Positions 37,371 to 63,160 are shown, counted from the stretch's first letter. The stretch: DNA of 64,000 nt from an uncultured Verrucomicrobiae bacterium (GCA_963842445.1 CAWJHF010000009.1:89086-153085); one strand, 5' to 3'. A program made the numbers and translations. Notes: generated from the letters alone by a model not told the origin.

Positions 37371-37715
37371 ATGAAAAAGATACTTGTACTTGCAACCGTA
37401 TTTGGCTTCGCCGCCGTGCTAAATGTCTCGGCTGCGGATGCCAAAGCAAACTGGGATTCGCTCTGCGCCAAGTGCCACGGCGCGGACGGTAAGGGCCAGA
37501 CCAAGATCGGCGCGAAGCTCGGCGTCAAGGACTTCACGGATGCCAAGGTTCAGGCGGCCATCAAGGATGAAGACGCGGTGAAAGCCATTAAAGATGGCAT
37601 CAAGGATGCGGATGGCAGGACGAAGATGAAGGCGTTCGTTACCGGGGTGGATACCCCCCTATCGGACGACGAAGTCAAGGCTCTGGTCGCCTACGTCCGC
37701 GGTTTGAAGACGTAG
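37371..37715 (+). CDS. Monoheme class I c-type cytochrome (paralog 1)
   Basis: Signal peptide, single CAKCH motif, distal Met candidate (TKMKAF). Very similar in sequence pattern to the 40760 ORF. Confidence 0.85.
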   Translation: MKKILVLATVFGFAAVLNVSAADAKANWDSLCAKCHGADGKGQTKIGAKLGVKDFTDAKVQAAIKDEDAVKAIKDGIKDADGRTKMKAFVTGVDTPLSDDEVKALVAYVRGLKT

Positions 37716-37801
37716 CAGGGTTTGCAGACGAGGATTGCTGGACTAACAATTTGAAAAGGCAGTCCTCGTCCATCTGAAAAGTCAAACCAAAGCCCGGCAT
37801 T

Positions 37802-38254
37802 ATGCGCCCCTTCAAATTGCCACCGCAAATTCTGCGATTGGTTTTGCTGACGCTGGCCATCGTCGGGTCATATCTGGTCGCACGGGCTTTCCTTACCCCG
37901 CCGTCCTTTGGTCAATACGGCTGGTATCGTGGAGCGGCACTGGCGGAGATTGCGGCGCGGCCACCCGTATTTGCAGGCAAGCAGGCGTGCGATGAATGTC
38001 ACTCCGACATCCTGCACAAGCTGGCGGCGGATGCGCACAAGACGCTTTCCTGCGAGGCCTGCCACGGCGTGAGTCGGGAGCATTGCGACAACCCGGACAT
38101 CCTGCCGGTCAAGGCAACCGGCAGCTATTGCCTTCGTTGCCACGAAGCCAATCCGGCCCGTCCGGAGTGGTTCAAGCAAATCGTCGTCAAAGATCATTAC
38201 AGCGGAAAGTGCACCGACTGCCACCTGCCGCATCAACCCAACCACACCCCATGA
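37802..38254 (+). CDS. Membrane-anchored tetraheme c-type cytochrome
   Basis: N-terminal TM helix, then CDECH, CEACH, CLRCH, CTDCH. Confidence 0.85.
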   Translation: MRPFKLPPQILRLVLLTLAIVGSYLVARAFLTPPSFGQYGWYRGAALAEIAARPPVFAGKQACDECHSDILHKLAADAHKTLSCEACHGVSREHCDNPDILPVKATGSYCLRCHEANPARPEWFKQIVVKDHYSGKCTDCHLPHQPNHTP

Positions 38255-39060
38255 AAACTCAAATCAGCCGGCGCAGCGCGCTCGCCAAACTGGGCGGCGC
38301 TCTGGCGGGCGTGCTCACCCTGTCGGTCGCGCGCAAGGCCAAAGCGGTGGTGCAAAAAGTATTCGTGTCCTCCGGCGCGCCCAAGGGCTACGACCCGACC
38401 AAGCATAAATGGCTCATGTGCATTGATGACAACAAGTGCATCGGCTGCGGGCTTTGCGTGGAGGCGTGCAAGCGGGAAAACGGCGTGCCGGAGGGGCCTT
38501 ACTTCCGCACCTGGATTGAGCGTTACATCATCCCCAAGCCGAAACCGGGCTCGGACCAAACCCGCGGTGAGGCGCTGGTGGATTCTCCCAACGGCGGGAT
38601 GCACGGTTTCCCCGAACCGCCCTTGCCGAAGGATCAGATTGAGCACGCGTTCTTCGTCCCGAAGCTGTGCAACCTGTGCGAGAATCCGCCTTGTGTCCAG
38701 GCATGTCCCGTTGGCGCGACATTTCGCGCGCCGGATGGCGCGGTGCTGATTGACCCGAAATACTGTATCGGCTGCGCCTTTTGTGTTCAGGCCTGTCCTT
38801 ATGGCTCCCGGTTCCTGAATCCGGTTACGAAGACCGCCGAAAAATGCACCCTGTGTTATCATCGCATTACGCGCGGATTGAAGCCGGCCTGCGTCGAGAT
38901 TTGTCCGGCGGAGGCGCGCATATTTGGCGATTTGAAAAACTTGCCGACCGATGATCCACTCCGGAAATTTTACGAAAAAAACCGGGTGCAGGTGCTCAAG
39001 CCGCATCTGGGCACCGAACCCCGCGTGCTCTACGCCGGCTTGGACAAGGAGGTAAGGTAA
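38251..39060 (+). CDS. Tat-exported 4Fe-4S cluster protein (NrfC/PsrB/HybA-like)
   Basis: ATG overlaps the upstream stop (ATGA). Tat leader SRRSALAKLGGALAG. Four Cys clusters, e.g. CIGCGLCVEAC, CNLCENPPCVQACP, CIGCAFCVQACP, CTLC...CVEICP. Confidence 0.88.
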   Translation: MKTQISRRSALAKLGGALAGVLTLSVARKAKAVVQKVFVSSGAPKGYDPTKHKWLMCIDDNKCIGCGLCVEACKRENGVPEGPYFRTWIERYIIPKPKPGSDQTRGEALVDSPNGGMHGFPEPPLPKDQIEHAFFVPKLCNLCENPPCVQACPVGATFRAPDGAVLIDPKYCIGCAFCVQACPYGSRFLNPVTKTAEKCTLCYHRITRGLKPACVEICPAEARIFGDLKNLPTDDPLRKFYEKNRVQVLKPHLGTEPRVLYAGLDKEVR

Positions 39061-39061
39061 T

Positions 39062-40297
39062 ATGACTGGCGAGGTAACTAATATCGTCGTGGAGGCGCTG
39101 CCGCAGTTTGAGGGGTATGTGTATCCCAATGAAGCCAGCTTTCACCCGGTCTGGAGCACGTTGATTGTCATTTATCCCTACATCACCGGACTGGTGGCGG
39201 GTGCCTTTATCATGGCCTCGCTGGTGCGCGTGTTCAATGTCAAGGCGCTGGCACCGGTGTATCGGCTCTCGATGTTGACAGCACTGGCGTTTTTGCTTTG
39301 CGCCACCTTGCCGCTGCTGTGTCATCTGGGGCATCCCGAGCGGTGCTATGAGATCATGATGACACCGCACATGACTTCGCCCATGGCGATTTTCGGCTTC
39401 GTCTATGCCTGGTATTTGATGGCGGTCCTGCTGCTGGAGCTGTGGTTTGATTACCGTCAGGACTTCGTGAAATGGTCAATAAGCACGTCTGGCTTCAGGG
39501 GGATCCTCTATCGGGCGTTGACCTTGGGTGTGACCGATGTGTCAGAGCAAAGTGTGCGGCTGGATATGAAGATGGAGTGGATCCTTTCGATTGTCGGAAT
39601 TCCATCAGCCTTTCTGTTGCACGGTTATGTCGGTTTCATTTTCGGCTCAATCAAGGCCAATCCCTGGTGGGGCAACGTGCTAATGCCGATCATGTTTATT
39701 CTTTCAGCCATCGTGTCGGGCATCGCGCTTTGCGTGTTCAACTACATCGTTCTGACTTGGATTCGCCGCAAGACCGTGGATATGCGCTGCCTGGACACCA
39801 TGGCGATGTTTCTCTTTTACGCGCTGGTGGTGGATGCCGTCGTTGAAGGGTTGGACGTGCTCCATCGCGGCTATGCGGCGGAGGAGGGGTTCGCGGTGTT
39901 GCAGACCATGATCCGCGAGAAACTCTTTTACACGCTGAATGTCGGCCAGGTGACCATTGGCACGTTGGTGCCGTTGTTGCTGCTGGGATCGCTCCAACTG
40001 CTGCGCCGGCGCGTGCCGGAGCTGATGCGGCGGCGCATGATTTTCGGCAGCGGGGCGATGATCCTGGTCGGCGTGCTGGCGATGCGTTGGAATGTCGTCA
40101 TGGGCGGCCAGTTTTTCTCCAAGAGCCTGCGCGGCGTGATGAGTTACAAAATGGAGTTTGCCGGACAGGAAGGCTGGCTCATCAGCGCCGTCATTATGTG
40201 CCTGCCGTTCATCATTCTGACGGTGCTGGTGAAACTGTTTTTGTCCGAGCGATTGCAAACCAGTGAACACGTGCCGCCGAACAGTTCCACAACATAG
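39062..40297 (+). CDS. NrfD/PsrC-family integral membrane quinone-interacting subunit
   Basis: 411 aa, about 10 TM helices. Start is 1 nt after the FeS gene stop. N-terminal WSTLIVIYPYITGLVAGAF pattern is typical of NrfD-type proteins. Confidence 0.8.
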   Translation: MTGEVTNIVVEALPQFEGYVYPNEASFHPVWSTLIVIYPYITGLVAGAFIMASLVRVFNVKALAPVYRLSMLTALAFLLCATLPLLCHLGHPERCYEIMMTPHMTSPMAIFGFVYAWYLMAVLLLELWFDYRQDFVKWSISTSGFRGILYRALTLGVTDVSEQSVRLDMKMEWILSIVGIPSAFLLHGYVGFIFGSIKANPWWGNVLMPIMFILSAIVSGIALCVFNYIVLTWIRRKTVDMRCLDTMAMFLFYALVVDAVVEGLDVLHRGYAAEEGFAVLQTMIREKLFYTLNVGQVTIGTLVPLLLLGSLQLLRRRVPELMRRRMIFGSGAMILVGVLAMRWNVVMGGQFFSKSLRGVMSYKMEFAGQEGWLISAVIMCLPFIILTVLVKLFLSERLQTSEHVPPNSSTT

Positions 40298-40759: not shown

Positions 40760-41089
40760 ATGAAAAAACTACTCGTTCTGGGCATCGCGGCAATGACCGT
40801 CGCAGCACTGTCCGCTCGCGCGGAAGACCCGAAGGCCATCTACGAAAATAATTGTGCCAAGTGCCATGGCGCTGATGGCAAAGGTGATACCAAGATAGGC
40901 AAGAAACTTGGCGCGAAGGATTATACCGATCCCAAAGTCCAAGCAGAATTGAAGGACGATGCCGCGTTCAAGGCAATCAAAGAAGGATTGAAAGACAAGG
41001 ATGACAAGACCCTGATGAAGCCAGCTGAAGATCTGTCCGACGGCGACATCAAGGGATTGGTCGCGTACATACGGACGTTTAAGAAGTAA
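40760..41089 (+). CDS. Monoheme class I c-type cytochrome (paralog 2)
   Basis: Signal peptide, CAKCHGADGKGDTKIGKKLGAKDYTD, TLMKPA, C-terminal LVAYIRTFKK as in paralog 1. Confidence 0.85.
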   Translation: MKKLLVLGIAAMTVAALSARAEDPKAIYENNCAKCHGADGKGDTKIGKKLGAKDYTDPKVQAELKDDAAFKAIKEGLKDKDDKTLMKPAEDLSDGDIKGLVAYIRTFKK

Positions 41090-41290: not shown

Positions 41291-42760
41291 ATGAATAACG
41301 AGAACGCGGGAAAGCCGCCTCGCCGGCCGTCCCTGCTGCAAAATTGGATGAGTTTGACTGGGCTGGTCGTTGTGATCGGCAGCCTGTTCTCGTTCTTCAT
41401 GTTGCTCATGCTGGATGCCGTCGCGCACTTTTCCAATCCTTACATCAGCATCCTGACTTGGATGGTGACGCCCGGATTCCTGATTAGCGGGCTGCTTCTG
41501 ACGCTGATTGGGGTGCTGCGCGAGCGGCGCAGACGGGCAAAGACCACCTCCTGGATATCGGTGGTGCAAATTGATCTTTCGCGCCCGCGTGACCGGCGCA
41601 TCCTTGTCACCTTCGTCATCAGCAGCCTGCTATTCATCATGCTTTCGGCGGTGGGCAGTTACAACGCATTTGAATTTACGGAATCGGTTCAGTTTTGCGG
41701 CGAGACCTGCCACGGTGTCATGAAACCGGAATTGACGACCCACGACCACGGGCCACACGCCCAAGTGGCCTGCGTGGCCTGCCACGTCGGTCCGGGAGTC
41801 AATTGGTTTGTCCGTTCGAAACTGTCCGGTTCCTACCAGGTCTATGCCGTCGCCTTCAACAAATATCCGCGCCCGATTCCGACGCCCATCAAAAACCTGC
41901 GGCCCGCCCGGGAAACCTGCGAGCAATGTCACTGGCCGCAGAAATTCTCCGGCAACCTCGACCGCACCTACAATTATTTCCAGGACGACGAATCCAATTC
42001 ACCTTATTCCATCCGGCTCTCGATCAAAATCGGCGGCGCCGACCCCACCCGCGGCCCGGTCGGCGGCATTCACTGGCACATGGTCGTGGGTAACGAGGTG
42101 GAATACATTGCCACGGATGAGGCCCGGCAAAAAATTCCCTGGGTGCGGATCACCGACCGACAGGGCGTCGTCACGGTTTACAAGACCAGAAATTTCACCA
42201 ACGACATCTCCCGCTTTGAAATCCGCAAAATGGATTGCATGGATTGCCACAACCGTCCGTCGCATCGTTACGTTCCGCCCGACCAGGCTGTTAATCTGGC
42301 CATGGAACTCGGCCAGATTGACCGCACCCTGCCTTGGATCAAGACCAACGCTGTCTTTGTCCTGACCCGCAAATACGACAACGACACCCAGGCGCGCGAC
42401 GGCATCGCCACTGCGCTGGCGGAGCGGTATCCCAATGATCCGCGCATCCGCGACGTGATCCCGGTGGTGCAGCAGATTTACCGCGACAATTTCTTTCCCG
42501 AAATGAAGGCCGACTGGAGCGTTTATCCGGACAACCTCGGCCACATGATCTGGCCCGGCTGTTTCCGGTGTCACGACGGCAACCACAAGGCCGACGATGG
42601 CCGGACCATCAAGGCCAACGATTGCAACGCCTGCCACACCATCCTCGCCCAAGGCACCGGCGCGGAATTACAGCAACTGACCCCGGGCGGCCAGCCCTTC
42701 AAACACACGGGTGGAGATTATGACCTTTCCTGTTCAGACTGCCACACCGGCGGACCATAG
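41291..42760 (+). CDS. Seven-heme inner-membrane c-type cytochrome with NapC/NirT-like N-terminal module (ImcH-like)
   Basis: Three N-terminal TM helices. CGETCH, CVACH, CEQCH, CMDCH, CFRCH, CNACH, CSDCH. Confidence 0.75.
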   Translation: MNNENAGKPPRRPSLLQNWMSLTGLVVVIGSLFSFFMLLMLDAVAHFSNPYISILTWMVTPGFLISGLLLTLIGVLRERRRRAKTTSWISVVQIDLSRPRDRRILVTFVISSLLFIMLSAVGSYNAFEFTESVQFCGETCHGVMKPELTTHDHGPHAQVACVACHVGPGVNWFVRSKLSGSYQVYAVAFNKYPRPIPTPIKNLRPARETCEQCHWPQKFSGNLDRTYNYFQDDESNSPYSIRLSIKIGGADPTRGPVGGIHWHMVVGNEVEYIATDEARQKIPWVRITDRQGVVTVYKTRNFTNDISRFEIRKMDCMDCHNRPSHRYVPPDQAVNLAMELGQIDRTLPWIKTNAVFVLTRKYDNDTQARDGIATALAERYPNDPRIRDVIPVVQQIYRDNFFPEMKADWSVYPDNLGHMIWPGCFRCHDGNHKADDGRTIKANDCNACHTILAQGTGAELQQLTPGGQPFKHTGGDYDLSCSDCHTGGP

Positions 42761-44874
42761 GTTGTCGGCGTTCATCGCTGGCATCCTTATCCTGTGCTGC
42801 CTGCCGGTCGCATCGTCGGCTTCGGTGGCCACGAATCTGGCGAATTCGGATTGCTTGGATTGCCATACCGATCCTTCCAACACCCGGAAAGTGGATGGCA
42901 AAATTGTCCCGCTTGCAGTTTTTCCCACCAACAGCTTCGCCCGGTCTGTCCATTCCATGCTCGATTGCACGGACTGTCACACCGGCGTCAAGGAACTCGT
43001 CCACGGTCGCCAAACTGCCGCCGCCGGATTGCACCGGCTGCCATGAAAAGGAGGGAAAGGATTATGCGGCCAGCATCCACGGCGTGAGCCACGCGCTCGG
43101 CGCGTCCGGGGCCGCCAATTGCTGGGACTGCCACGGTTCGCATGACATCCTGCCGGTCAAGGACCCGACATCGCCGGTCTTCAAACTCAACCTTCCCAAA
43201 ACGTGTGCCAAATGCCACAACAACCCGGCCTTGACGCGGGAGTACGAGATGAAACATCCCGAGGCGGCGGCGCAATACCTCGACAGCATCCACGGCCGCG
43301 CTTTGCTCAAGATGGGACTCATCGTCGCTCCGTCTTGCAACGACTGCCACGGCACGCACGACATCAAACGGTCTGTGGACCGCGACTCGCCCATCAACCA
43401 TGCCAACGTCGCCAGAACCTGCGGCAAATGTCACGTCGGCATCGAGGAAACCTACAACCAAAGCGTTCACGGGCAGTTGCTGGCCAGGGGCGATTCGCGC
43501 GGACCCGTCTGCACGGATTGCCATACCGCGCATGACATCGAAAATCCCGAAGGCAACAACTTCAAGGCCATCAGCGACGCGCGCTGCGGCAAATGCCACG
43601 CTGACCGGCTGGAACATTATCGCGACACGTACCACGGCAAGGCCATGGCCCTGGGCAAACCCAACGCCGCGCCTGCCGTTGCCGCCTGCTACGATTGCCA
43701 CGGCCATCACGACATCCTGCCACCCTCCAATCCTGCGTCGCATCTTTCAAAAACCAACATCCTCGCCACCTGCCAGCAATGTCATCCCGGCGCCACCATC
43801 GGCTTCACCGAATACAAGCCGCACGCCAACCCGATGGACAAAAAGAATTATCCCCTGCTCCACCTGGTTTTCATGGGCATGACCGGCCTGCTCATCGGCA
43901 CGTTCGCTTTCTTCGGCCTGCACACCCTCATGTGGCTCGTCCGCGCTATTTATCTTTACCTGCATGATTCAAAGAAGTTCCGCGAAGCGAAAATCGCGAC
44001 GCAGACGGATGGCGAATGGTTCACCCGTTTCATGCCCTTCGAGCGGCTTCTGCATTTCATGGTGGTGACCAGCTTTCTGCTGCTGGTCGTCACCGGCATG
44101 CCTTTGAAGTTCTACTACACCGGCTGGGCCAAGGCGATTTTCGCGGTCATCGGCGGACCGGAAACCGCGCGGACGCTGCACCGGTTCGGCGCGGTGGTGA
44201 CGTTCATGTATTTCGGCCTGCACTTGGCGTCGCTCATCGGCAAGGCGTGGAAAGGCCGCAAATCCGTGCGCGGCGCGGACGGCAAATTCCATTTCAAGCG
44301 TCTCTGGCAGGTGTTGTTCGGGCCTGACTCCATGATGCCGACCCTCCAGGACTGGCGGGATTTCGTCGCGCACAACAAATGGTTCTTCGGTAAGGGTCCC
44401 AAACCGGAGTTCGACCGCTGGACCTATTGGGAAAAATTCGATTACTTCGCCGTGTTCTGGGGTGTAGCCATTATCGGCGCCTCGGGGCTTATCATGTGGT
44501 TCCCGACGTTTTTCACGCGGTTCCTGCCGGGCTGGATCATCAACATCGCCCTGCTGATCCATTCGGACGAGGCGCTGCTGGCCGCCGGCTTCATCTTTTC
44601 CATCCATTTTTTCAACACCCATTTCCGCATCGAGAAATTTCCAATGGACACCGTCATCTTCTCCGGCCGCGTTTCCAAGAACGAGATGCTGCACGAGCGC
44701 AAACGCTGGTACGACCGGCTCGTGGCGACCGGCCGGCTGGACGACCACCGCGTCAAGGACGAATGGTTGCGCTGGAAAAACATCGCGCGGTCGTTCGGCT
44801 ACTTCTTTTTCGGTCTGGGCATCCTGCTGCTGCTGCTGATCATCTACGCCATGTTCACTCGGCTGGCACACTGA
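42720..44874 (+). CDS. Eleven-heme c-type cytochrome fused to a b-type cytochrome membrane domain (CbcL-like 1), with reading frame interrupted near 43005-43010
   Basis: ORF 42720-43046 has a signal peptide plus CLDCH and CTDCH. ORF 42895-44874 has 9 CXXCH motifs plus a 5-6 TM FdnI/HydC-like domain with conserved His. The two frames join colinearly with the paralog at 45061. Confidence 0.75.
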
Positions 44875-46735: not shown

Positions 46736-46758
46736 GTTGGTCTAGCAGGAGCCAATAG

Positions 46759-47736: not shown

Positions 47737-47748
47737 CGCGCGCAAGTT

Positions 47749-47803
47749 TCAACTATAGTCGAAAGACAATCAAGCCTGTTCTTGGTATCAACTATAGACG
47801 AAA
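47749..47803. promoter_or_regulatory. Two copies of a 16-nt box between the divergent methyltransferase and nuclease genes (C-box-like operator candidate)
   Basis: TCAACTATAGTCGAAA (47749-47764) and TCAACTATAGACGAAA (47788-47803). The core ACTATAGT is palindromic. Confidence 0.55.
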
Positions 47804-48699: not shown

Positions 48700-48720
48700 A
48701 CGGGTTGGTTCTTATTTTGA

Positions 48721-52044: not shown

Positions 52045-52045
52045 T

Positions 52046-53385: not shown

Positions 53386-55527
53386 TTAAAATCGGTATTG
53401 GAGGCTGGCAAAGATGACGTGGGCATCGTAATTGAAGTTGCCGCCGGACGCCGCATCTTCGTAGTGGGCGAACGCGTATTTCAGGTTGAGACGCAGGTTT
53501 TTGGTGATCCGGCGGGAGAGTGCCGCAGTAACGCTGTGTTCCTCGTTATCGGTTCCGAGCGGCACGCCGTCAACAATGTTGTTCTGGCCGTCGGCGGCGC
53601 GGTAATAAAAGTAACCGATGTTCAAATCGGTTTTGTCGTCCAGCACGAAATCCGAGTTGAAATTGATCGTCCAGTAATTGTTTTGCGAGTTGAGGACGGA
53701 CTGGGTCAGAATGGAGCCGGGGGTTGGCGGTGTCTCCGTGGTGCTGCGGACATAATTGAATCCGGCCTGCAGGCCAAGCCAGTTCAACGGCGTCCAGCTC
53801 GCGTTCTGGCCGATGATGTGGGTGTACATTTTCGAGGAATCCACTTCGCTCAAGCCGGACGCGGGGTCGGGCCGCGTATTGATGGTGGAGTACTGATATT
53901 CGTAGCGGCTGACGAGCGTGATGTTTTTCGGCAGGCGCAGCGTCAGGCGGATATTGCCGTCCCAAGTTTGAAATCCCTGATACACAATAAACCCGGGATA
54001 CAACGGGTTATCGGGGCCGGCATTGTTCGGCGTGCTGTCCTGCGTGAAGTTGTAGGTGTAGGTGTTGATTTTATAATAGCCGCCGACATCGAGGCTGGCC
54101 TGTCGGACGGGATACCACCGGGCGCTGGCAAAATATTTTTGGAAAAGACGCGAATCGTCGGTCGCGAATTGCACCGGATTGGGACCGATGCCATTTACTT
54201 GGAGCAGACCCCCGTTTTCGTACAGATTTCCCTGTCCCTCCGTCCATTGGCCGCCGGCGTTGAAGACCCAGTTGGTCATGGCGGTGTAGCGCAGGTCCAA
54301 GCGTTCACACACGTCGAGGGAATCGCGTCCGCTGTTGGACAAGATGTTGTCTTGCGTGTCAGTGTTCAAGGTGCCGGTGACGACGGAATCGGCATTCCAA
54401 TCCTCCCTTTGCACCCGGATCGAAGGGCTTATGGTAAAAGTCTTCGTCGGCAGCGACATGAGGTTGACGTTCAGGACATACTGGTGCTCGTGGGCAACGC
54501 CGTTGAGATTGACGTAGCCATAATCAAGGCCAGGGTAAGCCGGTGAATAAACCACGTCAAAATCATCTCCATAAATCCGGCTGCCGGTGAAGGTGTCGTC
54601 CAGATTGGCAAACATGAATCCGGCGGACAGGAACAGGTTGTTTTTGATCCAGCTTTCGGCGAAGGCATGGGTGCTCAACATGTCGTAGGACGTGCCCTCT
54701 TGATCAGTGACTTTTTGCTGAATGGGTTCCCCCGACCAGAAGGTCAACTCGTGGGCGTCATTCAAATCACCTGTCTCATAGCTTACCCCCACCCCGTAAT
54801 TCACTTTCTTGTAATGATGAGTCAGATCGAGTTGGAACGTGTCGGACGTTTCATCAATGCTGTAAATTCCCGGATACACCGCGTAGATATTCCCGCTGCT
54901 GGGATCATGGACCGGTCCCCAGAGGGTCGAGCTTTCATCGCCATTCCGGTAGCTGTGACTGTATTTGAAGGTGATTTGCGGAAGGTCTGGTTTGGTCAGC
55001 CCGGCCTCGAAGGTAATCAGGCCGCGGTCCAGTGCCAGCGCGTCGCCCGGCAGCGCATACGAAAGCTGCGCGTCGGGGATGTATCCTCCGGTGCCAGAAT
55101 CCCAGGTGCGGAAATTCTCAAAGTGGACGCGGACAAAACCCAGATCATCGCGAACCAAGCCGAGGCCGACGCTGTAATCGTGATCATCAAAAATGGAGTG
55201 TCCGTCCAACGTGAAAGTGGTCTTCTTGGCCACCTGATCTTCGTAGTGCAGGTCCTCGATGCCGCCAAAGACCCCCGTGTTGAGTTGTTTCCCTTGGACC
55301 GCCTGGTTCGCGTAACCCTGCGTCAACATGGCGCCGGAGGAAAGCTCGATCCAGTTGCTGTAACTGTTGGTGCCGCCTTCATACGACTGTTGCGGGGTGA
55401 TGGCGTCACCCGCCCGTGCCGCTGGTGCGCCGAGGACGACCAAGGACGCGCCGATGACATATCGGCCGAGGCCGGGTTTTCGCCGTCCGGCGCGAAGCAG
55501 TTTTGACTTTCGATATTTCTTTTTCAT
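53386..55527 (-). CDS. Large outer-membrane beta-barrel protein (porin component candidate, MtrB/PioB-like in size and context)
   Basis: Signal peptide ending APAARAGD, 713 aa of alternating amphipathic strands rich in Y/G/N/T/D, C-terminal ASLQYRF. Confidence 0.7.
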   Translation of the reverse strand: MKKKYRKSKLLRAGRRKPGLGRYVIGASLVVLGAPAARAGDAITPQQSYEGGTNSYSNWIELSSGAMLTQGYANQAVQGKQLNTGVFGGIEDLHYEDQVAKKTTFTLDGHSIFDDHDYSVGLGLVRDDLGFVRVHFENFRTWDSGTGGYIPDAQLSYALPGDALALDRGLITFEAGLTKPDLPQITFKYSHSYRNGDESSTLWGPVHDPSSGNIYAVYPGIYSIDETSDTFQLDLTHHYKKVNYGVGVSYETGDLNDAHELTFWSGEPIQQKVTDQEGTSYDMLSTHAFAESWIKNNLFLSAGFMFANLDDTFTGSRIYGDDFDVVYSPAYPGLDYGYVNLNGVAHEHQYVLNVNLMSLPTKTFTISPSIRVQREDWNADSVVTGTLNTDTQDNILSNSGRDSLDVCERLDLRYTAMTNWVFNAGGQWTEGQGNLYENGGLLQVNGIGPNPVQFATDDSRLFQKYFASARWYPVRQASLDVGGYYKINTYTYNFTQDSTPNNAGPDNPLYPGFIVYQGFQTWDGNIRLTLRLPKNITLVSRYEYQYSTINTRPDPASGLSEVDSSKMYTHIIGQNASWTPLNWLGLQAGFNYVRSTTETPPTPGSILTQSVLNSQNNYWTINFNSDFVLDDKTDLNIGYFYYRAADGQNNIVDGVPLGTDNEEHSVTAALSRRITKNLRLNLKYAFAHYEDAASGGNFNYDAHVIFASLQYRF

Positions 55528-55545: not shown

Positions 55546-56406
55546 TTAAAATCTGAGGGACGGACTCACACGGGAGCCGTGAACCGCCTCGTGACAACCG
55601 GCGCTCCAGCAGGCGCCCTGGCTCAAGCGGCTGTCGTGTGGAACGCCGCCAATATAAATGCCTCCATTTTTGTACTGCTGGAAATGGCATTTCAAACACA
55701 GGTTCGCATTGCGTTCGGTGAGCATTTTGGCGTTGACGCTGCCGTGCGGGGAATGACAGGTGGTGCAGCCTTCGCGCAGGGCTTCGTGTTCAAAGACAAA
55801 TGGCCCCTGCTGGGAAGGATGGCATTGGACGCAGTTTTCCTCCTGCGAAAGCAACTGGGTGCTGCCGCCAGCAAAGGCGATGCCCTTGTGCGGGGGATGG
55901 CATAGGATGCAAGTCATTCGTCCTTCGGGCACAGGATGGTGGTTGGGCAGATTGAACTGGCCGCGCACGTCCATGTGACATTGGTAACAGGCCGTCTCGA
56001 TCTTGCGCGCCGGGTCGAGCGGGAACCGCCCACTCAGCCCCTCCGGCTGCGGCCGACCGGCGGTGAAGCTGTAAGGCGGTTTAACATCGCCGCCCGAATC
56101 CTCATGCAAACTGCAAGGGCCGTGGCAGGATTCGCAACCGGCATCGAGCCCGTTTTTGCCCCGGGCGATGAGCCGCGCGTGGTCGGCGGTCTTGAAGCTG
56201 CGGCAGATTTCGTCGTGGCATTGTTCGCAGTCCGCGGAGCCGACGTACTTTGCACCCGGCACGTCCGGGAGCACCACCGCCTGGCGGCTGATGGTGCTGC
56301 AGGAAATAACTGCCAACAGCACAACAACCACGCCGGCCACCAGCGCCAGGTTTCGGCCACGCCACCCACGCCGCGGTAGCAGTTTGATGAAAGAAAATTT
56401 TGTCAT
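55546..56406 (-). CDS. Eight-heme c-type cytochrome (7 CXXCH + 1 CX4CH), lipobox-like signal
   Basis: VLLAVISC leader. CEQCH, CESCH, CYQCH, CILCH, CVQCH, CTTCH, CLKCH and CWSAGCH. Confidence 0.85.
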   Translation of the reverse strand: MTKFSFIKLLPRRGWRGRNLALVAGVVVVLLAVISCSTISRQAVVLPDVPGAKYVGSADCEQCHDEICRSFKTADHARLIARGKNGLDAGCESCHGPCSLHEDSGGDVKPPYSFTAGRPQPEGLSGRFPLDPARKIETACYQCHMDVRGQFNLPNHHPVPEGRMTCILCHPPHKGIAFAGGSTQLLSQEENCVQCHPSQQGPFVFEHEALREGCTTCHSPHGSVNAKMLTERNANLCLKCHFQQYKNGGIYIGGVPHDSRLSQGACWSAGCHEAVHGSRVSPSLRF

Positions 56407-56472
56407 GCGGATTTTTAGTTGTCGGTCATTTCACGCATATTCGGAAAACGCGCCGTTGTCGTGGCCTGCCGC

Positions 56473-58191
56473 TCATGGGTCTAATTCCTGGCCGATCAAG
56501 TTTTCAGCCGCGGACAACAGGTTAAGGGTAAAAATCCAATTGTGCGCGCCGAGGCTGCCGTCATTGACCACGAGATACAAATCGAACCGGGCCTTTTTGA
56601 TGTTGTCCGGGATCAGGGCCTGGCCGGCGGCGTTAGGCCCGCTGGAATTCACCTGGTCTGCCAACGTCCAACTGGTCACGTACCCCGCCGAGTTGGTCTG
56701 CCAGACCAATCCGCCCGGTGTCGTGTATTCCCAGATGACGGTCCCGTTGGTCCGCAACGCCGCCGGCGCCTGGGTGGCAGCCCACTGGTTCAATTCGTCA
56801 ATTACCAGGGAAACATCGTCGGAGACGCCAGGCGCCGATTGTCCGGGGTCAGTGAGATGACAGTTCATGCAGACATCGTGGGAAGCCACTTCGAACGTGT
56901 GGCTGAGAGTGTTGGCCGGCGGGGCGTCCGGTTGCATATGGCAGGACACGCATTGATTGGTCAGATAAAACGTGCCGTTCGTGGAGTACTTGGCGGAATC
57001 CGGCAGTCCCGCGTGCGTACCGGGATTGAAAATGGCCGGGCTGTCTGTCACGCCATTCCACAATTGCCCGACGGAACCGAGCAGGAAGTCGTACTGCAGC
57101 GAACGATGCGGCGCATAGGAGGTGTCCGTCCACGCGGCCCCGCGGGAGTTATGACACTGGCCGCAGAGATTGATGTTCGTGTTCGCCGCGTATTTGTTCG
57201 TAAACACGTCCGTGGGGGAGAGTGAAAAATAGTTGGTCGAGAAGATGGGATTGCGGAGCTGCGCCGGATTGGAATTGGTCTGGTGTGGATCGTGACAAAC
57301 GGCGCAGGTGATGGCGACGTCCAAGTCGTTCGTGAGCGTGAGGGGATTCTGACCGTTGATCAAGGCGAGCCGGACGGAGCCGGAATGACATTGGCCGCAA
57401 CTGCTGATGTTGTTGGTGGACGCACTTATGACCTGCAGCGCATCCGGCACCACGGTGGCATGGTCGCTGGTGTTCCATTCCTCGTAAGTAGGCTGCATGG
57501 GTCCGGTGTGGCAGCCGCCGCAAACGGTGGCGGCGATTTCCACGCGCGGGACCACCGTAGGGTCATCCTCGCTGGCCGCATGATTGGCCGCTGGCCCGTG
57601 ACAATTTTCACACTGCACCCCCGCCAGGTTGGTGGCGTAGGAAAAAACTCCGTTCTTGTTGGTGAAACTGAACCCGGTTGGCAAACCATAGCCAACCGTG
57701 TGGCAGGGCAGGCACGAACTGTTGGTCTGGCCGCCGGCGGCCTTGAACGCCGGGCTGCTGAAGGCGCTGGCGTGGAGCGTGTTTGTCTCGTACTGGCAGA
57801 TGCTCAAATGACACGTGAGGCAGACCTTCAAGCCGGCATAGTTCGGCGCCGGACCAGAGACGCGGAAGAAGGCATTGCTGTAGAGCTTTGTGATGACGGC
57901 GTAGCGGACCAGATTGGTAGCCTTGCCCAGCGTCATCCACGGGGCCAGCAAGCTGTTGCTTTTCTGATAGACCTGATAATAACCGGAGGGGCCGTCCCAA
58001 GTGACCTGCACGCCGTTGGTCAACTGTTCAATCCCGCCCATGACCGGCATTCCCGGCATCCCTCCCGGCTGGGTGGTGCCCAAGTGTTGGACCGATTGGG
58101 CCATCAGGGACGATGCAGTGAAAAGAATGCCCGCCGTCAGAATCAACCATGGCCTCTGGTTGGACGGCAAAGCCCTGACGCGGTTCATCAT
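56473..58191 (-). CDS. Nine-heme c-type cytochrome with N-terminal beta-sandwich domain
   Basis: ATG at 58191, signal peptide ...SSLMAQS. CLTCH, CLPCH, CENCH, CGGCH, CGQCH, CAVCH, CGQCH, CVSCH, CMNCH. Confidence 0.85.
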   Translation of the reverse strand: MMNRVRALPSNQRPWLILTAGILFTASSLMAQSVQHLGTTQPGGMPGMPVMGGIEQLTNGVQVTWDGPSGYYQVYQKSNSLLAPWMTLGKATNLVRYAVITKLYSNAFFRVSGPAPNYAGLKVCLTCHLSICQYETNTLHASAFSSPAFKAAGGQTNSSCLPCHTVGYGLPTGFSFTNKNGVFSYATNLAGVQCENCHGPAANHAASEDDPTVVPRVEIAATVCGGCHTGPMQPTYEEWNTSDHATVVPDALQVISASTNNISSCGQCHSGSVRLALINGQNPLTLTNDLDVAITCAVCHDPHQTNSNPAQLRNPIFSTNYFSLSPTDVFTNKYAANTNINLCGQCHNSRGAAWTDTSYAPHRSLQYDFLLGSVGQLWNGVTDSPAIFNPGTHAGLPDSAKYSTNGTFYLTNQCVSCHMQPDAPPANTLSHTFEVASHDVCMNCHLTDPGQSAPGVSDDVSLVIDELNQWAATQAPAALRTNGTVIWEYTTPGGLVWQTNSAGYVTSWTLADQVNSSGPNAAGQALIPDNIKKARFDLYLVVNDGSLGAHNWIFTLNLLSAAENLIGQELDP

Positions 58192-58459: not shown

Positions 58460-59416
58460 ATGCCCGAAGAATGGAACCAAAATGAGAAACGCCACATAAT
58501 GAAATCTGCCTCCCCCAACACCCCACCGGCAACCGACCCACAGACCGTAAGACCATCCGGTTGGCGTCCCCTGATTCTGGTGCCGGTTTTTTTCCTGTTG
58601 GGAGCCGCATTGACCGGCGTCTGGTTTAAATACGGCAAACCCGCAACGGGTTCCATGCTGCCGGAACAGGAACTTTCCGGCCAGACCGTGAATCTTCTGC
58701 ACCATTTGAATTCACCGGTGGAACTCCGGTTTTATTCGGTGCTCCCGCCGGGCAGTGCCCTGGAACCGCTTCAGGATTTTTCCCGGCGGGTGGACCATTT
58801 GCTGTCCGAATTTCAAAACGCAAATGACGGTCAAATCCACGTGATCCGGAACCTCTCAACTTCGGGAGCCAATGCGGACGCCGCCGCGGCTGACGGCATC
58901 CATCCTTTCAATCTGGACAAGGGCGAGGCTTGTTTTCTGGGAATCACCGTCGCCAGCGGGGGGCGGAAGGAATCGCTGTCCCAGATCCAGCCCGAATGGG
59001 AACCGGCGCTGCCGTTTGACCTGGCCCGCGCGATCCTTCAGGTGACCGCCACGCCGTCATCGCCCGTCGTCAAGGCAAGTCCCCCGGTTTCCCCCGAAAC
59101 CACCAATGAAATCCTGCGCCTGATTCCCGATGTCAATGGCACGTCACTGGAGGACGGAATCGGAATTTTACGCCAGGCCGCCGTGGACAAATTCAGCGAG
59201 GCCGGAGCCGAAATGGAGAAGCAGATTCAGGCCGCGCAACAACAAGCCAGCGACGCGCAAAACGGCGGGCCGGGGGCGGGGCAGCAGGCCGCGATGAAAC
59301 ATCTCCAGCAGGTCCAGTTGGACCAGGCGGAAAAACTCAAACAAATCGCCGCTCAACTGCAGGCCCAGATTTCCGCCTTCGAGCAGATGAAAGCCGCGCC
59401 TCCCGCCACAAAATAA
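58460..59416 (+). CDS. Membrane-anchored protein with GldG-like (ABC auxiliary) N-domain and Gln-rich coiled-coil tail
   Basis: One TM helix (LILVPVFFLLGAALTGVWF). Segment VELRFYSVLPPGS...DFSRRVDHLLSEF resembles the GldG family. Assignment is tentative. Confidence 0.45.
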   Translation: MPEEWNQNEKRHIMKSASPNTPPATDPQTVRPSGWRPLILVPVFFLLGAALTGVWFKYGKPATGSMLPEQELSGQTVNLLHHLNSPVELRFYSVLPPGSALEPLQDFSRRVDHLLSEFQNANDGQIHVIRNLSTSGANADAAAADGIHPFNLDKGEACFLGITVASGGRKESLSQIQPEWEPALPFDLARAILQVTATPSSPVVKASPPVSPETTNEILRLIPDVNGTSLEDGIGILRQAAVDKFSEAGAEMEKQIQAAQQQASDAQNGGPGAGQQAAMKHLQQVQLDQAEKLKQIAAQLQAQISAFEQMKAAPPATK

Positions 59417-59646: not shown

Positions 59647-62013
59647 TTACGGCGTGTGCACCACGCGGAAAAACATCTGCGGCTCGTTCCGCGTCGGGGT
59701 CAGGTAACTGATGGAACCACCGGTGCCGGGAATATTGGTGCTGATGTTCAGCCAGCCACCAGTCAGAGCCGAGACACCCTGGATCTGATAAGTGGTGTTG
59801 ATCTGCGTGTCGAAGGCGATTTCCGCCGCCGTGTAGATGGCGACGGTGTTGGTAGCACCGTTGACCATGTTGTTGCCATCGAAATAGATCACACCGCTGC
59901 CCGTCACCGTGAAGGCACCGAACGGATTGAGACCCAAGGTGCACATCATCCAGTTTGGGACACCGGCGCTGTTGTTGACAGCGTTGGGGCCGGCCGCAGT
60001 GTTAGTGGCAAAGCCGGCGCCGAAGTAAGCTTCCTGCCAGGCATCGGGCAGACCGTCGTTGTTGGCGTCACCGGTCAAATTGCCAATGGAAGCCTTGAGC
60101 AGGCCGACTGCGTAGGGCGCGTTGTGAATGCCCAAGCTTCCGTCATTGCTGACGAACTGCCAGTTGTAGGCAGCTTCCAGAAATTGCGTCGGCCAGTTGG
60201 TCTGGGTTGTAATGGACGACTGGACCACGCCGGCCGCAACATAGTTGTTTGCATTCGCCTCGTAATTCGTAGGAGGCAGGAGAGTGGACAGCTTGTTGAG
60301 CAGGAGTTGGACCTGGGTCTGAACACCCAGGCTGTAGCCAACACCAACGTAATCGGGAACCAGCATGTCAAAGTTGGTGATGGCACCATGGCATTGGGTG
60401 CAGACATAGGTCACGTCAACGTTGACGCCCTGGCTGTTGGTGTAACTCATCATGGTGGAATGGCCGCCGGCCAGGGTGAACGCCGGATCGGTGGAAGCTA
60501 TCGGCTGATAATGGCAACCAACGCAGGTGTTGGACACCACGTTGGCGTGGGGAGCGCTCGGAATCACCTGGCCGTAGGTCACGGCATTAATGCCCTCCAG
60601 CATATCGCCTTGCGGGCTGTCATGCGGACCAAAAGCGGACCCGCCATTCCACGTCGGTTGGGAGAGCGCATAATTCACAATGCTGTTGCTGAACGAACCG
60701 TTGCGGCTGTTGTGGCAGTTCATGCAGAAACCACCAAGACCGGCATTGGTGACCACAAAGCCGGTATTCCCATTAAACGCGACAGTGGTGCTGGTGCGCA
60801 GTTGATGCGGGTTGGAGGCGTCGTGGGGATTGTGGCAGGTCTGACAGTTGATCGCTTCGTAAACCACATTGGTGACGTAAGCATTGGTGTTGCCCAGATT
60901 GGCGACGTAATTAATAAAGCCGGGAGCCGTATGGCAACGAACACAGGCTATGCGGCTGGCGGAACCGGAAGGCGTCCGGGTCGTGACGGCGTGCAGTGAA
61001 TTGTACCATTCGGCGGCGTAGTAATAGTTGGTCAGGCTGTCATGGCATTGGGCGCAATCACCTGCGTTATAGCTGATGGCGATGGCATTGGTATTTCCCA
61101 CAATGCCCTGCGAATACAGATGCTGGCTGCCGGGGCCATGGCAGTTTTCGCACTGGATATTGGCCAGGTTTTGCAATTGCGGCGGCATTGCGGCCCAGTT
61201 GCTGTTGGTCAGCGCGGTCGGGAAAGTCCAGTTCAGCAGCGTTGCCAGGTCGTCAAAACCGCCGTTGTTGGCGAATGAGTTGGTGTCATAACCAACAGTG
61301 TGACACACAATGCAACTTGCGCTGTAATTGCTGCTCTCCAAGCCATTAATGGCACGGGTGAAGAATGTGGCATGGGGCGTATTGGTCCAAGTGGGGTAAA
61401 TGTCGGGCACACCCACCAAGCCGCCGCTGTGACAGTCGGCGCAAGCAGCAATGCCCAGATAAGTGGCCGCCGTAACGGTGATGGCGATATTTGTCGTGGC
61501 CGGGGCGATGGTGTTCGTCCCGTTTTTACCCGTCGTGGTGATCGTAGCTTGGACAGTGTATTGTCCGACGACATCCGGGCGGAAAAAGGTCCGGCCCGCC
61601 AGTTGGGATACCAAAGCGCCGGATTGGGTATTGTTGGGTATTAAACGGTCTGCCGGGTTGTAAAGCGGCACATTGGTGCCCAGCGGACTGTTGGTCAGCA
61701 CCGCCAGCGAACCCAGAGGCTTGTTGGTCAGCGGCCACCAAGTGACGCTAAGAATGTTCGAAGGCGCAATGGAGTTGTTCACCAAGGCGTCAAGATAGAC
61801 CGGCTCGCCCACGCCGACATTATTAATGCCGGCGGAAACCTGGGCATTGGTCAACCCATACGCCGAGATTTCATTCGGGGTGAGGGGACGCTGTTCGACC
61901 TGGCCATTTAGTGCGGTCGTCGCCGCGTTGACGGTGGTCACAGCTCCGACAAACGTCAATGCCACTGCCGCAAGGCCGGCAAACATCTTCGATGGGGGAT
62001 GGTGTGCTTTCAT
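59647..62013 (-). CDS. Nine-heme c-type cytochrome, 788 aa, with Ig-like N-domain and C-terminal beta-sandwich
   Basis: Signal peptide. CADCH, CIVCH, CENCH, CAQCH, CVRCH, CQTCH, CMNCH, CVGCH, CTQCH. GDANNDGLPDAWQ calcium-binding-like motif. Confidence 0.85.
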   Translation of the reverse strand: MKAHHPPSKMFAGLAAVALTFVGAVTTVNAATTALNGQVEQRPLTPNEISAYGLTNAQVSAGINNVGVGEPVYLDALVNNSIAPSNILSVTWWPLTNKPLGSLAVLTNSPLGTNVPLYNPADRLIPNNTQSGALVSQLAGRTFFRPDVVGQYTVQATITTTGKNGTNTIAPATTNIAITVTAATYLGIAACADCHSGGLVGVPDIYPTWTNTPHATFFTRAINGLESSNYSASCIVCHTVGYDTNSFANNGGFDDLATLLNWTFPTALTNSNWAAMPPQLQNLANIQCENCHGPGSQHLYSQGIVGNTNAIAISYNAGDCAQCHDSLTNYYYAAEWYNSLHAVTTRTPSGSASRIACVRCHTAPGFINYVANLGNTNAYVTNVVYEAINCQTCHNPHDASNPHQLRTSTTVAFNGNTGFVVTNAGLGGFCMNCHNSRNGSFSNSIVNYALSQPTWNGGSAFGPHDSPQGDMLEGINAVTYGQVIPSAPHANVVSNTCVGCHYQPIASTDPAFTLAGGHSTMMSYTNSQGVNVDVTYVCTQCHGAITNFDMLVPDYVGVGYSLGVQTQVQLLLNKLSTLLPPTNYEANANNYVAAGVVQSSITTQTNWPTQFLEAAYNWQFVSNDGSLGIHNAPYAVGLLKASIGNLTGDANNDGLPDAWQEAYFGAGFATNTAAGPNAVNNSAGVPNWMMCTLGLNPFGAFTVTGSGVIYFDGNNMVNGATNTVAIYTAAEIAFDTQINTTYQIQGVSALTGGWLNISTNIPGTGGSISYLTPTRNEPQMFFRVVHTP

Positions 62014-62083
62014 AAGTTTGTAATCTAGTCTGGATTTACGATTGTCGGTGTAATCTTTTATGTTTTCGCAATTGCGGTTTCGT

Positions 62084-63160
62084 TCATATCGTCACCTCGC
62101 ACAAGGTCCAGCGCGGCACCAATTCCACGTCGGCAAGCGACCAGGCAATAGACGGCAGATTCAATTTCACCAGCAATCCTGCTGCGCGCCGGGTGATGAT
62201 TTCGTTGCACTTGGAAAGCTCCTGCTCCCGCACCCGGGAATTCTCGCGGACAATCGCTTCCAGGTGGTCAATGTTATAGAGGTAAACGTTTTCCAGTTCC
62301 TCCACGTCCGGGGCGATGTCCCGCGGCACGGCGATGTCCACCAGGATAAGCGGCCGGTTCGAGCGCGCCGCAAGGATGCCGGCAATCTCATGCTTGTGGA
62401 GAACCGTCGTTGGGCTGCCGGTGGAACTCACCACAATGTCGGCTTCGACGATGGCGGCCATGCGTTCCTCAAACGACAACGCGCGTCCGCCGAGTTCTGC
62501 GGCCAGCGATTGGGCGCGTTCGAGGGAGCGGTTGGCCACCAGCACCGACCGGGTGCCACGTTTGGCCAGATGACGGACACAAGCCTCGCCCATCTTGCCC
62601 GCGCCCAGGATCATCACCGTCTTGTCGGACAAATCGCCGGAAAAGATCTTCTCGGCCAGCTCGACAGCCACGCGCCCAACGGAAGTCGCGCCACGGCCTA
62701 TGCCCGTGTGCGTGCGGACCTCCTTGGCCACCTGCAGCGCGGTTTGAAACCACCGGTTCAGCACGCGGCCGGTCAACCCGAATTGTTGCGCCGCTTGATA
62801 CGCATTTTTGACCTGGCCGGTGATTTCCGTTTCACCAATCACCATTGAATCCAAGCCGCTGGCGACCGAGAACAGATGCTCCACCGCAGCGGCGCCTTCC
62901 TTGACGTAAACATAAGGCGTCACATCCAGCTCAGGACAGAGCTGTTGAAAAATGCGAAACACCCGGCCCTGGATCCAGGCTGACGTCGCGCCATACACCT
63001 CGACGCGGTTGCAGGTGGAAAGCAGCACGACTTCATCCAGGCCGGCGCCGAGCTTGAGCCGGCAGCCGTAGCATGGCAGCAGCGAGGGTCGCACCGCCAG
63101 CTTTTCGCGCACCTCCACCGGCGCGGTTTTGTAACTCAAACCTGTGACAAACACCTTCAT
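62084..63160 (-). CDS. hemA: Glutamyl-tRNA reductase
   Basis: ATG at 63160. LSTCNRVEVYG active-site motif and NADPH motif VMILGAGKMGE. Confidence 0.9.
   Translation of the reverse strand: MKVFVTGLSYKTAPVEVREKLAVRPSLLPCYGCRLKLGAGLDEVVLLSTCNRVEVYGATSAWIQGRVFRIFQQLCPELDVTPYVYVKEGAAAVEHLFSVASGLDSMVIGETEITGQVKNAYQAAQQFGLTGRVLNRWFQTALQVAKEVRTHTGIGRGATSVGRVAVELAEKIFSGDLSDKTVMILGAGKMGEACVRHLAKRGTRSVLVANRSLERAQSLAAELGGRALSFEERMAAIVEADIVVSSTGSPTTVLHKHEIAGILAARSNRPLILVDIAVPRDIAPDVEELENVYLYNIDHLEAIVRENSRVREQELSKCNEIITRRAAGLLVKLNLPSIAWSLADVELVPRWTLCEVTI

Follow-up and report, generated by a model that had tools for sequence, protein, structure and literature searches.

A probable porin-cytochrome electron conduit with candidate quinol-oxidising modules in an uncultured Limisphaerales bacterium

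A 64,000-nucleotide stretch of DNA from an uncultured Verrucomicrobiae bacterium (GCA_963842445.1, CAWJHF010000009.1:89086-153085; hereafter the window, in whose coordinates all positions are given) carries, between positions 37371 and 63160, a dense cluster of c-type cytochrome genes, together with genes for quinol-interacting membrane proteins, an outer-membrane barrel, cytochrome c maturation and haem synthesis. An earlier reading of this DNA, made from the sequence alone, had proposed nine cytochrome genes with about 59 haem-binding motifs, and a motif scan of the translations gives the same counts: 1, 4, 1, 7, 11, 9, 8, 9 and 9, or 59 in all. Two motifs depart from the canonical form: the heptahaem protein has one CX3CH and the octahaem protein one CX4CH. 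When CXXCH is counted in six frames, 58 occurrences fall within 37371-62013 and 3 in the remaining 39 kb of the window, a distribution that excludes a chance origin of the motifs. Open reading frame (ORF) listing and translation reveal two convergent gene blocks with an insertion in between. The plus-strand block runs in the order monohaem cytochrome c, tetrahaem cytochrome, NrfC-like protein, NrfD, second monohaem cytochrome c, heptahaem cytochrome and two fusions of a multihaem domain to a cytochrome b. The minus-strand block runs hemA, a 788-residue nonahaem cytochrome, a 572-residue nonahaem cytochrome, octahaem cytochrome, 713-residue barrel, a 405-residue lipoprotein called lipo405 here, resB/ccsB and ccsA; a DUF7088 gene, read in the opposite direction, separates the two nonahaem genes. 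Profile searches of Pfam and NCBIfam, on which the family assignments rest, and a model of the barrel place the NrfC/NrfD pair, the two cytochrome b fusions, the barrel, ccsB, ccsA and hemA where the sequence-only reading had put them.

The outer-membrane part of the locus comprises the following genes:
53386-55527, minus strand: predicted outer-membrane beta-barrel of 713 residues and about 26-28 strands, with an MtrB-like fold (AlphaFold2 model and Foldseek)
55546-56406, minus strand: putative MtrA-family octahaem periplasmic cytochrome of 286 residues, with seven CXXCH and one CX4CH and a possible lipobox (VISC)
56473-58191, minus strand: OmhA/OcwA-like nonahaem cytochrome of 572 residues from its likely start, with nine CXXCH
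58460-59416, plus strand: DUF7088 single-pass membrane protein with a Gln/Ala-rich tail (Pfam DUF7088, 33 bits)
59647-62013, minus strand: OcwA-like nonahaem cytochrome of 788 residues with extra N- and C-terminal domains and nine CXXCH (PDB 6i5b_A, E 3.8e-8)

The octahaem protein matches PDB 6r2q_A with an E-value of 3.1e-23, in an alignment that covers its six C-terminal haem sites. Entry 6R2Q is the Shewanella Mtr complex, and its chain A is MtrA (333 residues), the name field of the entry being wrong. The CX4CH site aligns with the final haem motif of MtrA and the N-terminal part aligns weakly. The protein is thus best described as a predicted MtrA homologue that has two fewer haem sites in its N-terminal part. 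Its motif pattern is invariant, seven CXXCH and one CX4CH being found in 80 of 80 orthologues. The gene lies 18 bp from that of the barrel. An AlphaFold2 model of the barrel, built with 44 homologues as input (predicted local distance difference test, pLDDT, 70; predicted template-modelling score 0.64), has about 26-28 strands and no plug domain. Its top Foldseek match in the PDB is MtrB (6r2q_B), with an E-value of 5.7e-14 and template-modelling scores of 0.57 and 0.62. The next matches are 22-strand TonB-dependent receptors, with E-values of 6e-10 and weaker and template-modelling scores of about 0.4. A TonB-dependent receptor was rejected as an identity for the barrel, given the missing plug, these low scores and E-values about 10^4 weaker than that of MtrB.

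The two nonahaem cytochromes are paralogues (27% identity, E 6e-28) and their closest structural relatives are surface reductases of Gram-positive bacteria. The 572-residue protein matches 6qvm_A (E 1.2e-11) and 6i5b_A (E 4e-8). 6I5B is the structure of OcwA, a terminal reductase with nine haems on the surface of Thermincola (PMC6703420). 6QVM, a 681-residue 'multiheme cytochrome cf', is very probably OmhA of Carboxydothermus ferrireducens, judging from equal lengths, since the product of the omhA gene has 681 residues (PMC7829351). OcwA and OmhA act as terminal reductases towards Fe(III) minerals and electrodes. All nine CXXCH are kept in 71 of 73 orthologues of the 572-residue protein and in 47 of 51 members of the other nonahaem set. 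Inspection of the two sequences did not reveal the catalytic motif CXXCK, and their weak Pfam matches to Cytochrom_C552 and NapB both stay under cut-off; an NrfA-type nitrite reductase was rejected on these grounds. The signal related to MtrC is limited to a match to the Pfam module Mtrc-MtrF_II-IV_dom, at 43-50 bits.

The plus-strand block would supply the inner-membrane and periplasmic parts:
37371-37715, plus strand: monohaem class-I cytochrome c of 114 residues with a signal peptide and one CXXCH, a candidate periplasmic carrier (Pfam Cytochrom_C, 44 bits)
37802-38254, plus strand: membrane-anchored, CbcS-like tetrahaem cytochrome of 150 residues, with four CXXCH and one N-terminal transmembrane helix (residues 8-32)
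38251-39060, plus strand: NrfC/CbcT-like ferredoxin with four Cys clusters, exported by twin-arginine translocation (Fer4_11, 94.5 bits; RR signal)
39062-40297, plus strand: NrfD/CbcU-like integral membrane quinol-interacting subunit of 411 residues (Pfam NrfD, 129.8 bits, profile positions 10-311 of 313)
40760-41089, plus strand: second monohaem class-I cytochrome c, 109 residues, one CXXCH (Pfam Cytochrom_C, 50.9 bits)
41291-42760, plus strand: putative ImcH-type inner-membrane heptahaem quinol oxidase of 489 residues, with three transmembrane segments, a CX3CH at residue 136 and six CXXCH
42720-44874, plus strand: CbcL-type fusion 1, an 11-haem periplasmic domain joined to an FdnI-like dihaem cytochrome b, frame broken (motifs and profiles)
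45061-46735, plus strand: CbcL-type fusion 2, nine haems joined to a cytochrome b, frame broken (motifs and profiles)

ImcH is defined in the literature by three N-terminal transmembrane helices, a CX3CH beside the membrane domain, six CXXCH and a length of about 490-520 residues (PMC6295460). The 489-residue protein shows the three N-terminal helices, the membrane-proximal CX3CH and the six CXXCH, and its N-terminal part matches the NapC/NirT profile. Residues E127, H137, K173, Q179 and Y188, which include the His/Gln pocket of haem 1, have been singled out in ImcH of G. sulfurreducens (GSU3259; bioRxiv 10.1101/2023.05.03.539133). Their equivalents here, E131, H141, K177, Q183 and Y192, lie at a constant offset of +4, as read from the published residue numbers. 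The E, K and Q of this quinone site are kept in 17 of 17 orthologues, and Y varies; the same 17 all have six CXXCH and one CX3CH. The two CbcL-type fusions, which are paralogues of each other (29% identity, E 2e-45), have the architecture of CbcL, MtoC and MtrH, that is, an N-terminal multihaem c domain followed by a C-terminal cytochrome b of the HydC/FdnI type. Both b domains match FdnI/formate dehydrogenase gamma (E 8e-5 for fusion 1 against 1kqf_C), and their Ni_hydr_CYTB scores are 24 and 30.3 bits for a cut-off of 30.1. The tetrahaem protein gives weak matches to the NapC/NirT and NrfH profiles. The ferredoxin, whose RR signal and four Cys motifs were read from the sequence, is TtrB/DsrO/NrfC-like, with scores under the equivalog cut-offs. 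Together with NrfD, these two proteins match Geobacter Cbc4 in composition and gene order when likened to its published architecture, which is, in sequence, a membrane-anchored tetrahaem cytochrome, a protein with four [4Fe-4S] clusters and an integral membrane subunit, CbcS-CbcT-CbcU (bioRxiv 10.1101/2025.04.14.648717). The conduit reading thus finds its quinol modules in ImcH-, CbcL- and Cbc4-like parts. The closest PDB relative of the second monohaem cytochrome is the c-552 protein Ks_3358 (5mxy, E 1.4e-9).

Close homologues of the barrel number in the hundreds (567 matches), and those that bear a taxon label belong to Verrucomicrobiota. Look-ups for exact copies of the window's barrel and lipo405 matched no public record. 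Relatives of the barrel are encoded by at least 99 species-representative genomes. The 80 barrel-bearing genomes listed are uncultured metagenome-assembled genomes (MAGs), most of them labelled Verrucomicrobiota and many of them Limisphaerales or 'subdivision 3' MAGs of peat, bog, soil and lake origin. From the labels of these relatives, the host is an uncultured Limisphaerales bacterium (Verrucomicrobiota) of soil or peat. Synteny was scored by tblastn over 90 related loci. The barrel is present in 89 of them, the octahaem cytochrome in 86, the nonahaem cytochrome of the 572-residue type in 80, that of the 788-residue type in 78 (a count that includes some cross-matches, at 25-28%, to the other nonahaem gene) and DUF7088 in 61, always in the position that it has here. 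Barrel and octahaem genes are adjacent in 86 of 89 loci. The other genes are linked to this core in subsets of the same 90 loci: hemA in 35, where it stands beside the gene of the 788-residue cytochrome, monohaem cytochrome c in 24, the ImcH-like gene in 20, lipo405 in 20, resB in 18, ccsA in 17, NrfC in 14 and the CbcL-like genes in 10. Conserved synteny, which had been named as a check on the cluster, therefore holds for the core, in about 80 of 90 loci, and is variable for the inner-membrane modules. The 'supercluster' that had been described as one unit is a modular assembly around a constant core of octahaem cytochrome, barrel, two nonahaem genes and DUF7088. In five more distant loci (L012, L018, L035, L040 and L047), the CbcL-type gene lies upstream of hemA and not beside ccsA, which indicates that the quinol-oxidase modules are shuffled around the core.

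Taken together, these homologies favour the view that the cluster specifies a porin-cytochrome electron conduit, fed by several quinol oxidases of the inner membrane, through which respiratory electrons probably leave the cell. Each step of the path proposed below is drawn from homology and synteny. Menaquinol would be oxidised at the inner membrane by the ImcH-type heptahaem protein, the two CbcL-type b/c fusions and the Cbc4-like complex of tetrahaem cytochrome, iron-sulphur protein and NrfD. In Geobacter, ImcH and CbcL serve acceptors of differing redox potential (bioRxiv 10.1101/2023.05.03.539133). The electrons would then cross the periplasm on the two small monohaem cytochromes c and pass the outer membrane along the MtrA-like octahaem chain, threaded through the MtrB-like barrel of about 26 strands. 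On the outer face, one or both of the OcwA/OmhA-like nonahaem cytochromes might reduce acceptors outside the cell, for instance Fe(III) and organic matter in humic or particulate form. The sequence-only reading had likewise seen a candidate trans-envelope system that follows the logic of Geobacter and Shewanella with different parts, and this gains support from the MtrA homology, the MtrB fold match and the OcwA/OmhA matches.

Several observations weigh against this assignment. On the DmsE decahaem family profile, the octahaem protein scores 152.8 bits for a cut-off of 192.2. Sequence-profile searches of the PDB, Pfam and NCBIfam with the barrel gave zero matches, so that its similarity to MtrB is undetectable at the sequence level, and the confidence of the model that reveals the fold is moderate (pLDDT 70). 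Both nonahaem proteins carry plain Sec signals, and neither a lipobox nor a recognisable surface-sorting signal was found in their sequences; their location on the outer surface is therefore an assumption. Finally, sequence does not tell which way the electrons flow, and function is assigned here by homology.

The maturation and haem-synthesis genes that adjoin the core are the following:
48721-50648, minus strand: ccsA, System II cytochrome c synthase, frame broken (Cytochrom_C_asm, 63 bits, ending at profile position 160 of 212)
50800-52044, minus strand: ccsB/resB, 414 residues (Pfam ResB, 59 bits)
52046-53263, minus strand: lipo405, lipoprotein of 405 residues with two predicted tandem PsbP/DcrB-like domains (AlphaFold2 model and Foldseek)
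62084-63160, minus strand: hemA, glutamyl-tRNA reductase (GlutR_N, 158 bits; Shikimate_DH, 149 bits)

ResB/CcsB and the WWD signature of CcsA, here in the motif WGRFWGWD, identify a System II pathway. The sequence-only reading had taken these genes as the cluster's own maturation and haem-synthesis equipment, a view that their distribution does not bear out. The lipo405 family has more than 3,500 matches, against 567 for the barrel, and is found in at least 587 species genomes, against at least 99. Its neighbourhood was sampled in 80 Verrucomicrobiota loci (L093-L172), 64 of which contain enough downstream DNA: resB lies directly downstream of lipo405 in 57 of the 64 and ccsA comes next in 58, and the barrel is found within 8 kb of lipo405 in only 19 of the 80. 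On the closed chromosome OY760937.1, the barrel and lipo405 loci are 1.5 Mb apart, and in locus L091 the lipo405-resB-ccsA operon adjoins a two-component system, not a conduit. Since it is widespread and mostly away from the barrel, lipo405-ccsB-ccsA is, as far as gene order can tell, the general System II module of the lineage, which adjoins the core in this sub-lineage. The lipoprotein itself has no Pfam or NCBIfam match. Its AlphaFold2 model (pLDDT 69) contains two tandem alpha/beta domains with weak PsbP/LpqN/DcrB-like Foldseek matches (E about 5e-5). A thioredoxin-like role, as of CcsX/ResA, was rejected, the lipobox cysteine being the sole cysteine of the protein. The constant position of the gene suggests an accessory role in cytochrome maturation and makes lipo405 a candidate new System II accessory factor. 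That it is an unrecognised third System II component in Verrucomicrobiota, and that the ccsBA module and hemA stand beside the conduit for co-regulated mass production of cytochromes with some 59 haem sites, is a doubtful extension of this idea. As for hemA, it is presumably an ordinary single-copy housekeeping gene.

The two convergent blocks are separated by genes of another kind:
46759-48699, both strands: restriction-modification pair, not part of the electron-transfer system (Pfam N6_N4_Mtase and HTH_3)
46759-47745, minus strand: N6/N4 DNA methylase (Pfam N6_N4_Mtase)
47746-47764 and 47785-47803: two 19-nucleotide palindromic, operator-like repeats in the shared promoter region of the pair
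about 47803-48699, plus strand: putative endonuclease fused to a helix-turn-helix domain (Pfam HTH_3)

The second CbcL-type gene and ccsA converge, and the pair fills exactly the gap between their stop codons (46736-48720); its genes have no homologue in any of the 90 related loci. It is a later insertion at the meeting point of two convergent transcription units. A repeat search around it found no target-site duplication and no terminal inverted or flanking repeats, the operator-like palindromes inside it being the only repeats. In the closest Illumina-derived relative (L001, barrel 92% identical), an intact ccsA of 619 residues abuts the ImcH-like gene with no b-fusions between them, and locus L008 has both b-fusions intact, in the same place, without the restriction-modification pair. 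The ccsA/ImcH-like junction is therefore a variable spot. In a 90%-identical relative (L004, about 16750-21500), ccsA and the ImcH-like gene are held apart by some 4.7 kb of unrelated DNA that contains neither CbcL-type nor restriction-modification genes, and from this locus the junction seems to be a recurrent insertion or variable spot.

Three genes that flank the insertion are frameshifted as assembled, a point that, like the insertion itself, the sequence-only reading did not notice. Alignment with the intact orthologous locus L008 maps every lesion to a single-base insertion or deletion (indel). Fusion 1 has one extra base near 42995-43003 (about 43000): nine of its haem motifs lie in ORF 42895-44874 and two more, with the signal peptide, lie upstream in a different frame, so that the count of 11 haems was reached because reading continued across the frameshift. 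Fusion 2 has one extra base near 46375-46380 (about 46378), its true stop being at 46735. In ccsA, a CCC run near 49021 (49019-49022), directly after WGWD, is one C short, and the tail is in the other frame; intact relatives of the protein have 606-632 residues. Two of the three indels fall at short single-base runs, the missing C of the CCC and an extra base at a G run.

It is quite likely that the three frameshifts are consensus errors of a long-read assembly. Each gene has one single-base indel and no additional stops, and both halves of each gene are highly conserved. Protein identity to L008 also exceeds DNA identity (95% against 89.5% for the 11-haem fusion, and 91% against 88.8% in a second pair of figures), and ccsA is intact in both orthologous lipo405-ccsBA loci whose gene calls were compared (L001 and L003). 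The source contig of 542,666 bp, and the several broken genes in the same cluster of a related long-contig MAG (L026), are read as signs of long-read assembly. Two facts stand against such errors. All other Pfam-covered genes of the window appear full length, and the three indels lie within 6 kb, for which the chance is about 0.025 if three events fall at random in 64 kb; uniformly distributed sequencing errors would not predict this clustering. A poorer consensus in a strain-variable region is one alternative explanation of it. Methylation-linked basecalling was considered too, and no convincing motif common to the three sites was found.

The same two facts, and the flanking of an insertion seen in this genome alone among the 90 related loci compared, are what would be expected if the frameshifts were real and possibly tied to the arrival of the restriction-modification pair, in which case the low-potential branch and this copy of ccsA would be pseudogenes. 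We regard such decay as possible but unlikely. The single lesion per gene, with no stops or further decay, and the excess of protein over DNA identity argue against it, and the long contig and the broken genes of the related MAG fit indel errors of long reads. Moreover, the lipo405-ccsBA genes look like the general System II operon of the lineage, and ccm genes are reported to be absent from related Verrucomicrobiota MAGs (bioRxiv 10.64898/2026.05.27.727921). This ccsA is thus probably the sole copy, and its loss would abolish all c-type cytochromes, although nine neighbouring cytochrome genes remain intact.

A rival reading has the conduit working inward. Fe(II) or reduced humics outside the cell, or a syntrophic partner, would then supply electrons to the quinone pool or to an oxidase, on the pattern of the MtoAB/MtoD/MtoC and PioAB systems. 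Carriers of the type that the Mto pathway uses are present in the two monohaem class-I cytochromes c, and PDB 4xxl, which we take to be MtoD, is among the weak matches (E 0.0037). Proteins of the CbcL/MtoC/MtrH type occur in Fe(II) oxidisers as well as in Fe(III) reducers, and conduits of the Mtr type are reversible (PMC6295460). To date, in contrast, ImcH homologues have been reported from Fe(III) reducers alone and are held to be quinol oxidases (PMC6295460). Firmicutes that reduce Fe(III) have terminal reductases similar to the nonahaem proteins, and the cluster contains no Cyc2 or oxidase gene. These points make inward operation rather improbable.

Least probable of all is that the nonahaem cytochromes are catalytic reductases of soluble nitrogen or sulphur compounds, of the NrfA/ONR/MccA-like fold family, and that the cluster serves periplasmic oxyanion respiration. 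In its favour, OcwA is by structure a member of the NrfA/HAO/MccA group and can reduce nitrite and hydroxylamine in vitro, though slowly (PMC6703420), and the nonahaem proteins have weak Cytochrom_C552 and NapB matches and no lipobox. Against it, CXXCK is missing, these scores remain under their cut-offs, and nitrite turnover by OcwA is about one per minute (PMC6703420). In about 80 of 90 loci, moreover, the nonahaem genes accompany those of an MtrA homologue and an MtrB-like barrel, a linkage that makes sense only for crossing of the outer membrane. The sequence-only reading had named assignment of the barrel and the large cytochromes to families of unrelated role, such as nitrogen or sulphur oxyanion reductases, as one outcome that would count against it; the large cytochromes match OcwA and OmhA instead, and not NrfA-type enzymes.

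An outward conduit of this general kind has been predicted before in the same phylum, and the earlier remark that the host lineage is not classically associated with such conduits finds no support. He et al. (2017) described, in Verrucomicrobia MAGs from a bog, novel porins of at least 20 strands clustered with periplasmic cytochromes of eight haem sites and extracellular multihaem cytochromes; they proposed extracellular electron transfer to humic substances and reported that homologues of the Shewanella and Geobacter systems were absent from their MAGs (PMC5615132). A 2026 preprint reported four architectures, two of them syntenic Verrucomicrobiota architectures that include 'EET4' of Limisphaerales, with MtrA-like and OcwA-like components among the four; its definition asks for a sequence identity of at least 50%, and EET4 is reported to be transcribed in situ in peat (bioRxiv 10.64898/2026.05.27.727921). 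The present locus shares with these clusters the phylum and order, the humic and peat habitats, a barrel gene of at least 20 strands beside that of an eight-site periplasmic cytochrome, and candidate extracellular multihaem cytochromes, here the two nonahaem genes. It differs from them by its restriction-modification insertion and three frameshifts, and by its ImcH-, CbcL- and Cbc4-like modules and in-cluster ccsBA, which are mentioned in the main text of neither paper; the terms ImcH, CbcL, NrfD and ccsA do not occur in the text of the preprint. When likened by description, the locus fits the published clusters feature by feature and is an unusually complete example of a kind already predicted.

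With Shewanella MtrCAB (6R2Q), the locus has in common a putative MtrA-family cytochrome gene beside that of a large barrel whose model has MtrB as its best fold match, and an encoded outer cytochrome partner. The periplasmic component has eight haems here and ten in Shewanella, the difference being two CXXCH in the N-terminal part, and at the sequence level no similarity of the barrel to MtrB can be detected. Its outer partners are OcwA/OmhA-like nonahaem proteins without a lipobox, whereas those of Shewanella are the decahaem lipoproteins MtrC and OmcA; with nine haems, no lipobox, and OmhA and OcwA as best relatives, they do not belong to the MtrC/OmcA family of surface lipoproteins. The quinol oxidase is not CymA. 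The octahaem count is that of OmaB, the periplasmic component of the Geobacter Pcc system (OmaB-OmbB-OmcB), but the barrel is larger, with about 26-28 strands instead of about 20, and there is no dodecahaem lipoprotein of the OmcB type, so that the locus is not of the Pcc kind either. The ImcH, CbcL and Cbc4 genes, scattered in Geobacter, lie beside the conduit here, one CbcL-type protein has 11 haems, unlike CbcL of Geobacter, and the carriers are monohaem class-I cytochromes, there being no PpcA-type trihaem gene in the cluster. The likeness to OcwA (Thermincola potens, 6I5B) and to 6QVM consists in sequence similarity of the haem core (E 1e-11 to 4e-8) and, for OcwA, in the nonahaem count. 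Those two proteins sit on Gram-positive cell walls, whereas their homologues here have extra N- and C-terminal domains and are paired with a putative outer-membrane conduit of the Mtr type.

Since the cluster type and its proposed role were already published, the conceptual gain is small. What is new is that a predicted MtrA homology of the octahaem protein and an MtrB-like fold of the modelled barrel can be detected in a Verrucomicrobiota cluster, that part of the genomes have modules of the ImcH, CbcL and Cbc4 types linked to the core, that ccsBA is part of a general three-gene module with a new lipoprotein, and that the locus has a restriction-modification insertion and frameshifts peculiar to it. 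In peat, bog water and soil, where Limisphaerales are abundant, carbon may be diverted from methanogenesis when humic or particulate organic matter serves as respiratory acceptor. One contig holds candidates for four types of quinol oxidase, the carriers, the Mtr-like conduit and two OcwA-like terminal cytochromes, which makes it a convenient template for heterologous expression or targeted metatranscriptomics.

A few features outside the cluster may be recorded. Between metH and the cluster, at 35799-37094 on the minus strand, an ORF of 431 residues with proline-rich repeats of the type PAEKNGEHP is a candidate gene; it has no significant family match. An Rfam scan gave a single tRNA as its sole match, distant from the cluster. 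This tRNA gene (8024-8094, minus strand) adjoins a stretch at 8-12 kb whose G+C fraction is lower than elsewhere (0.48-0.50 against about 0.57) and which codes for large immunoglobulin-domain/DUF6345 proteins. At 7195-7986, on the plus strand, lies a gene for an N-terminal-methylation/DUF1559 protein, a type common in Planctomycetes and Verrucomicrobia, which supports the assignment of the window to the Planctomycetes-Verrucomicrobia-Chlamydiae group.

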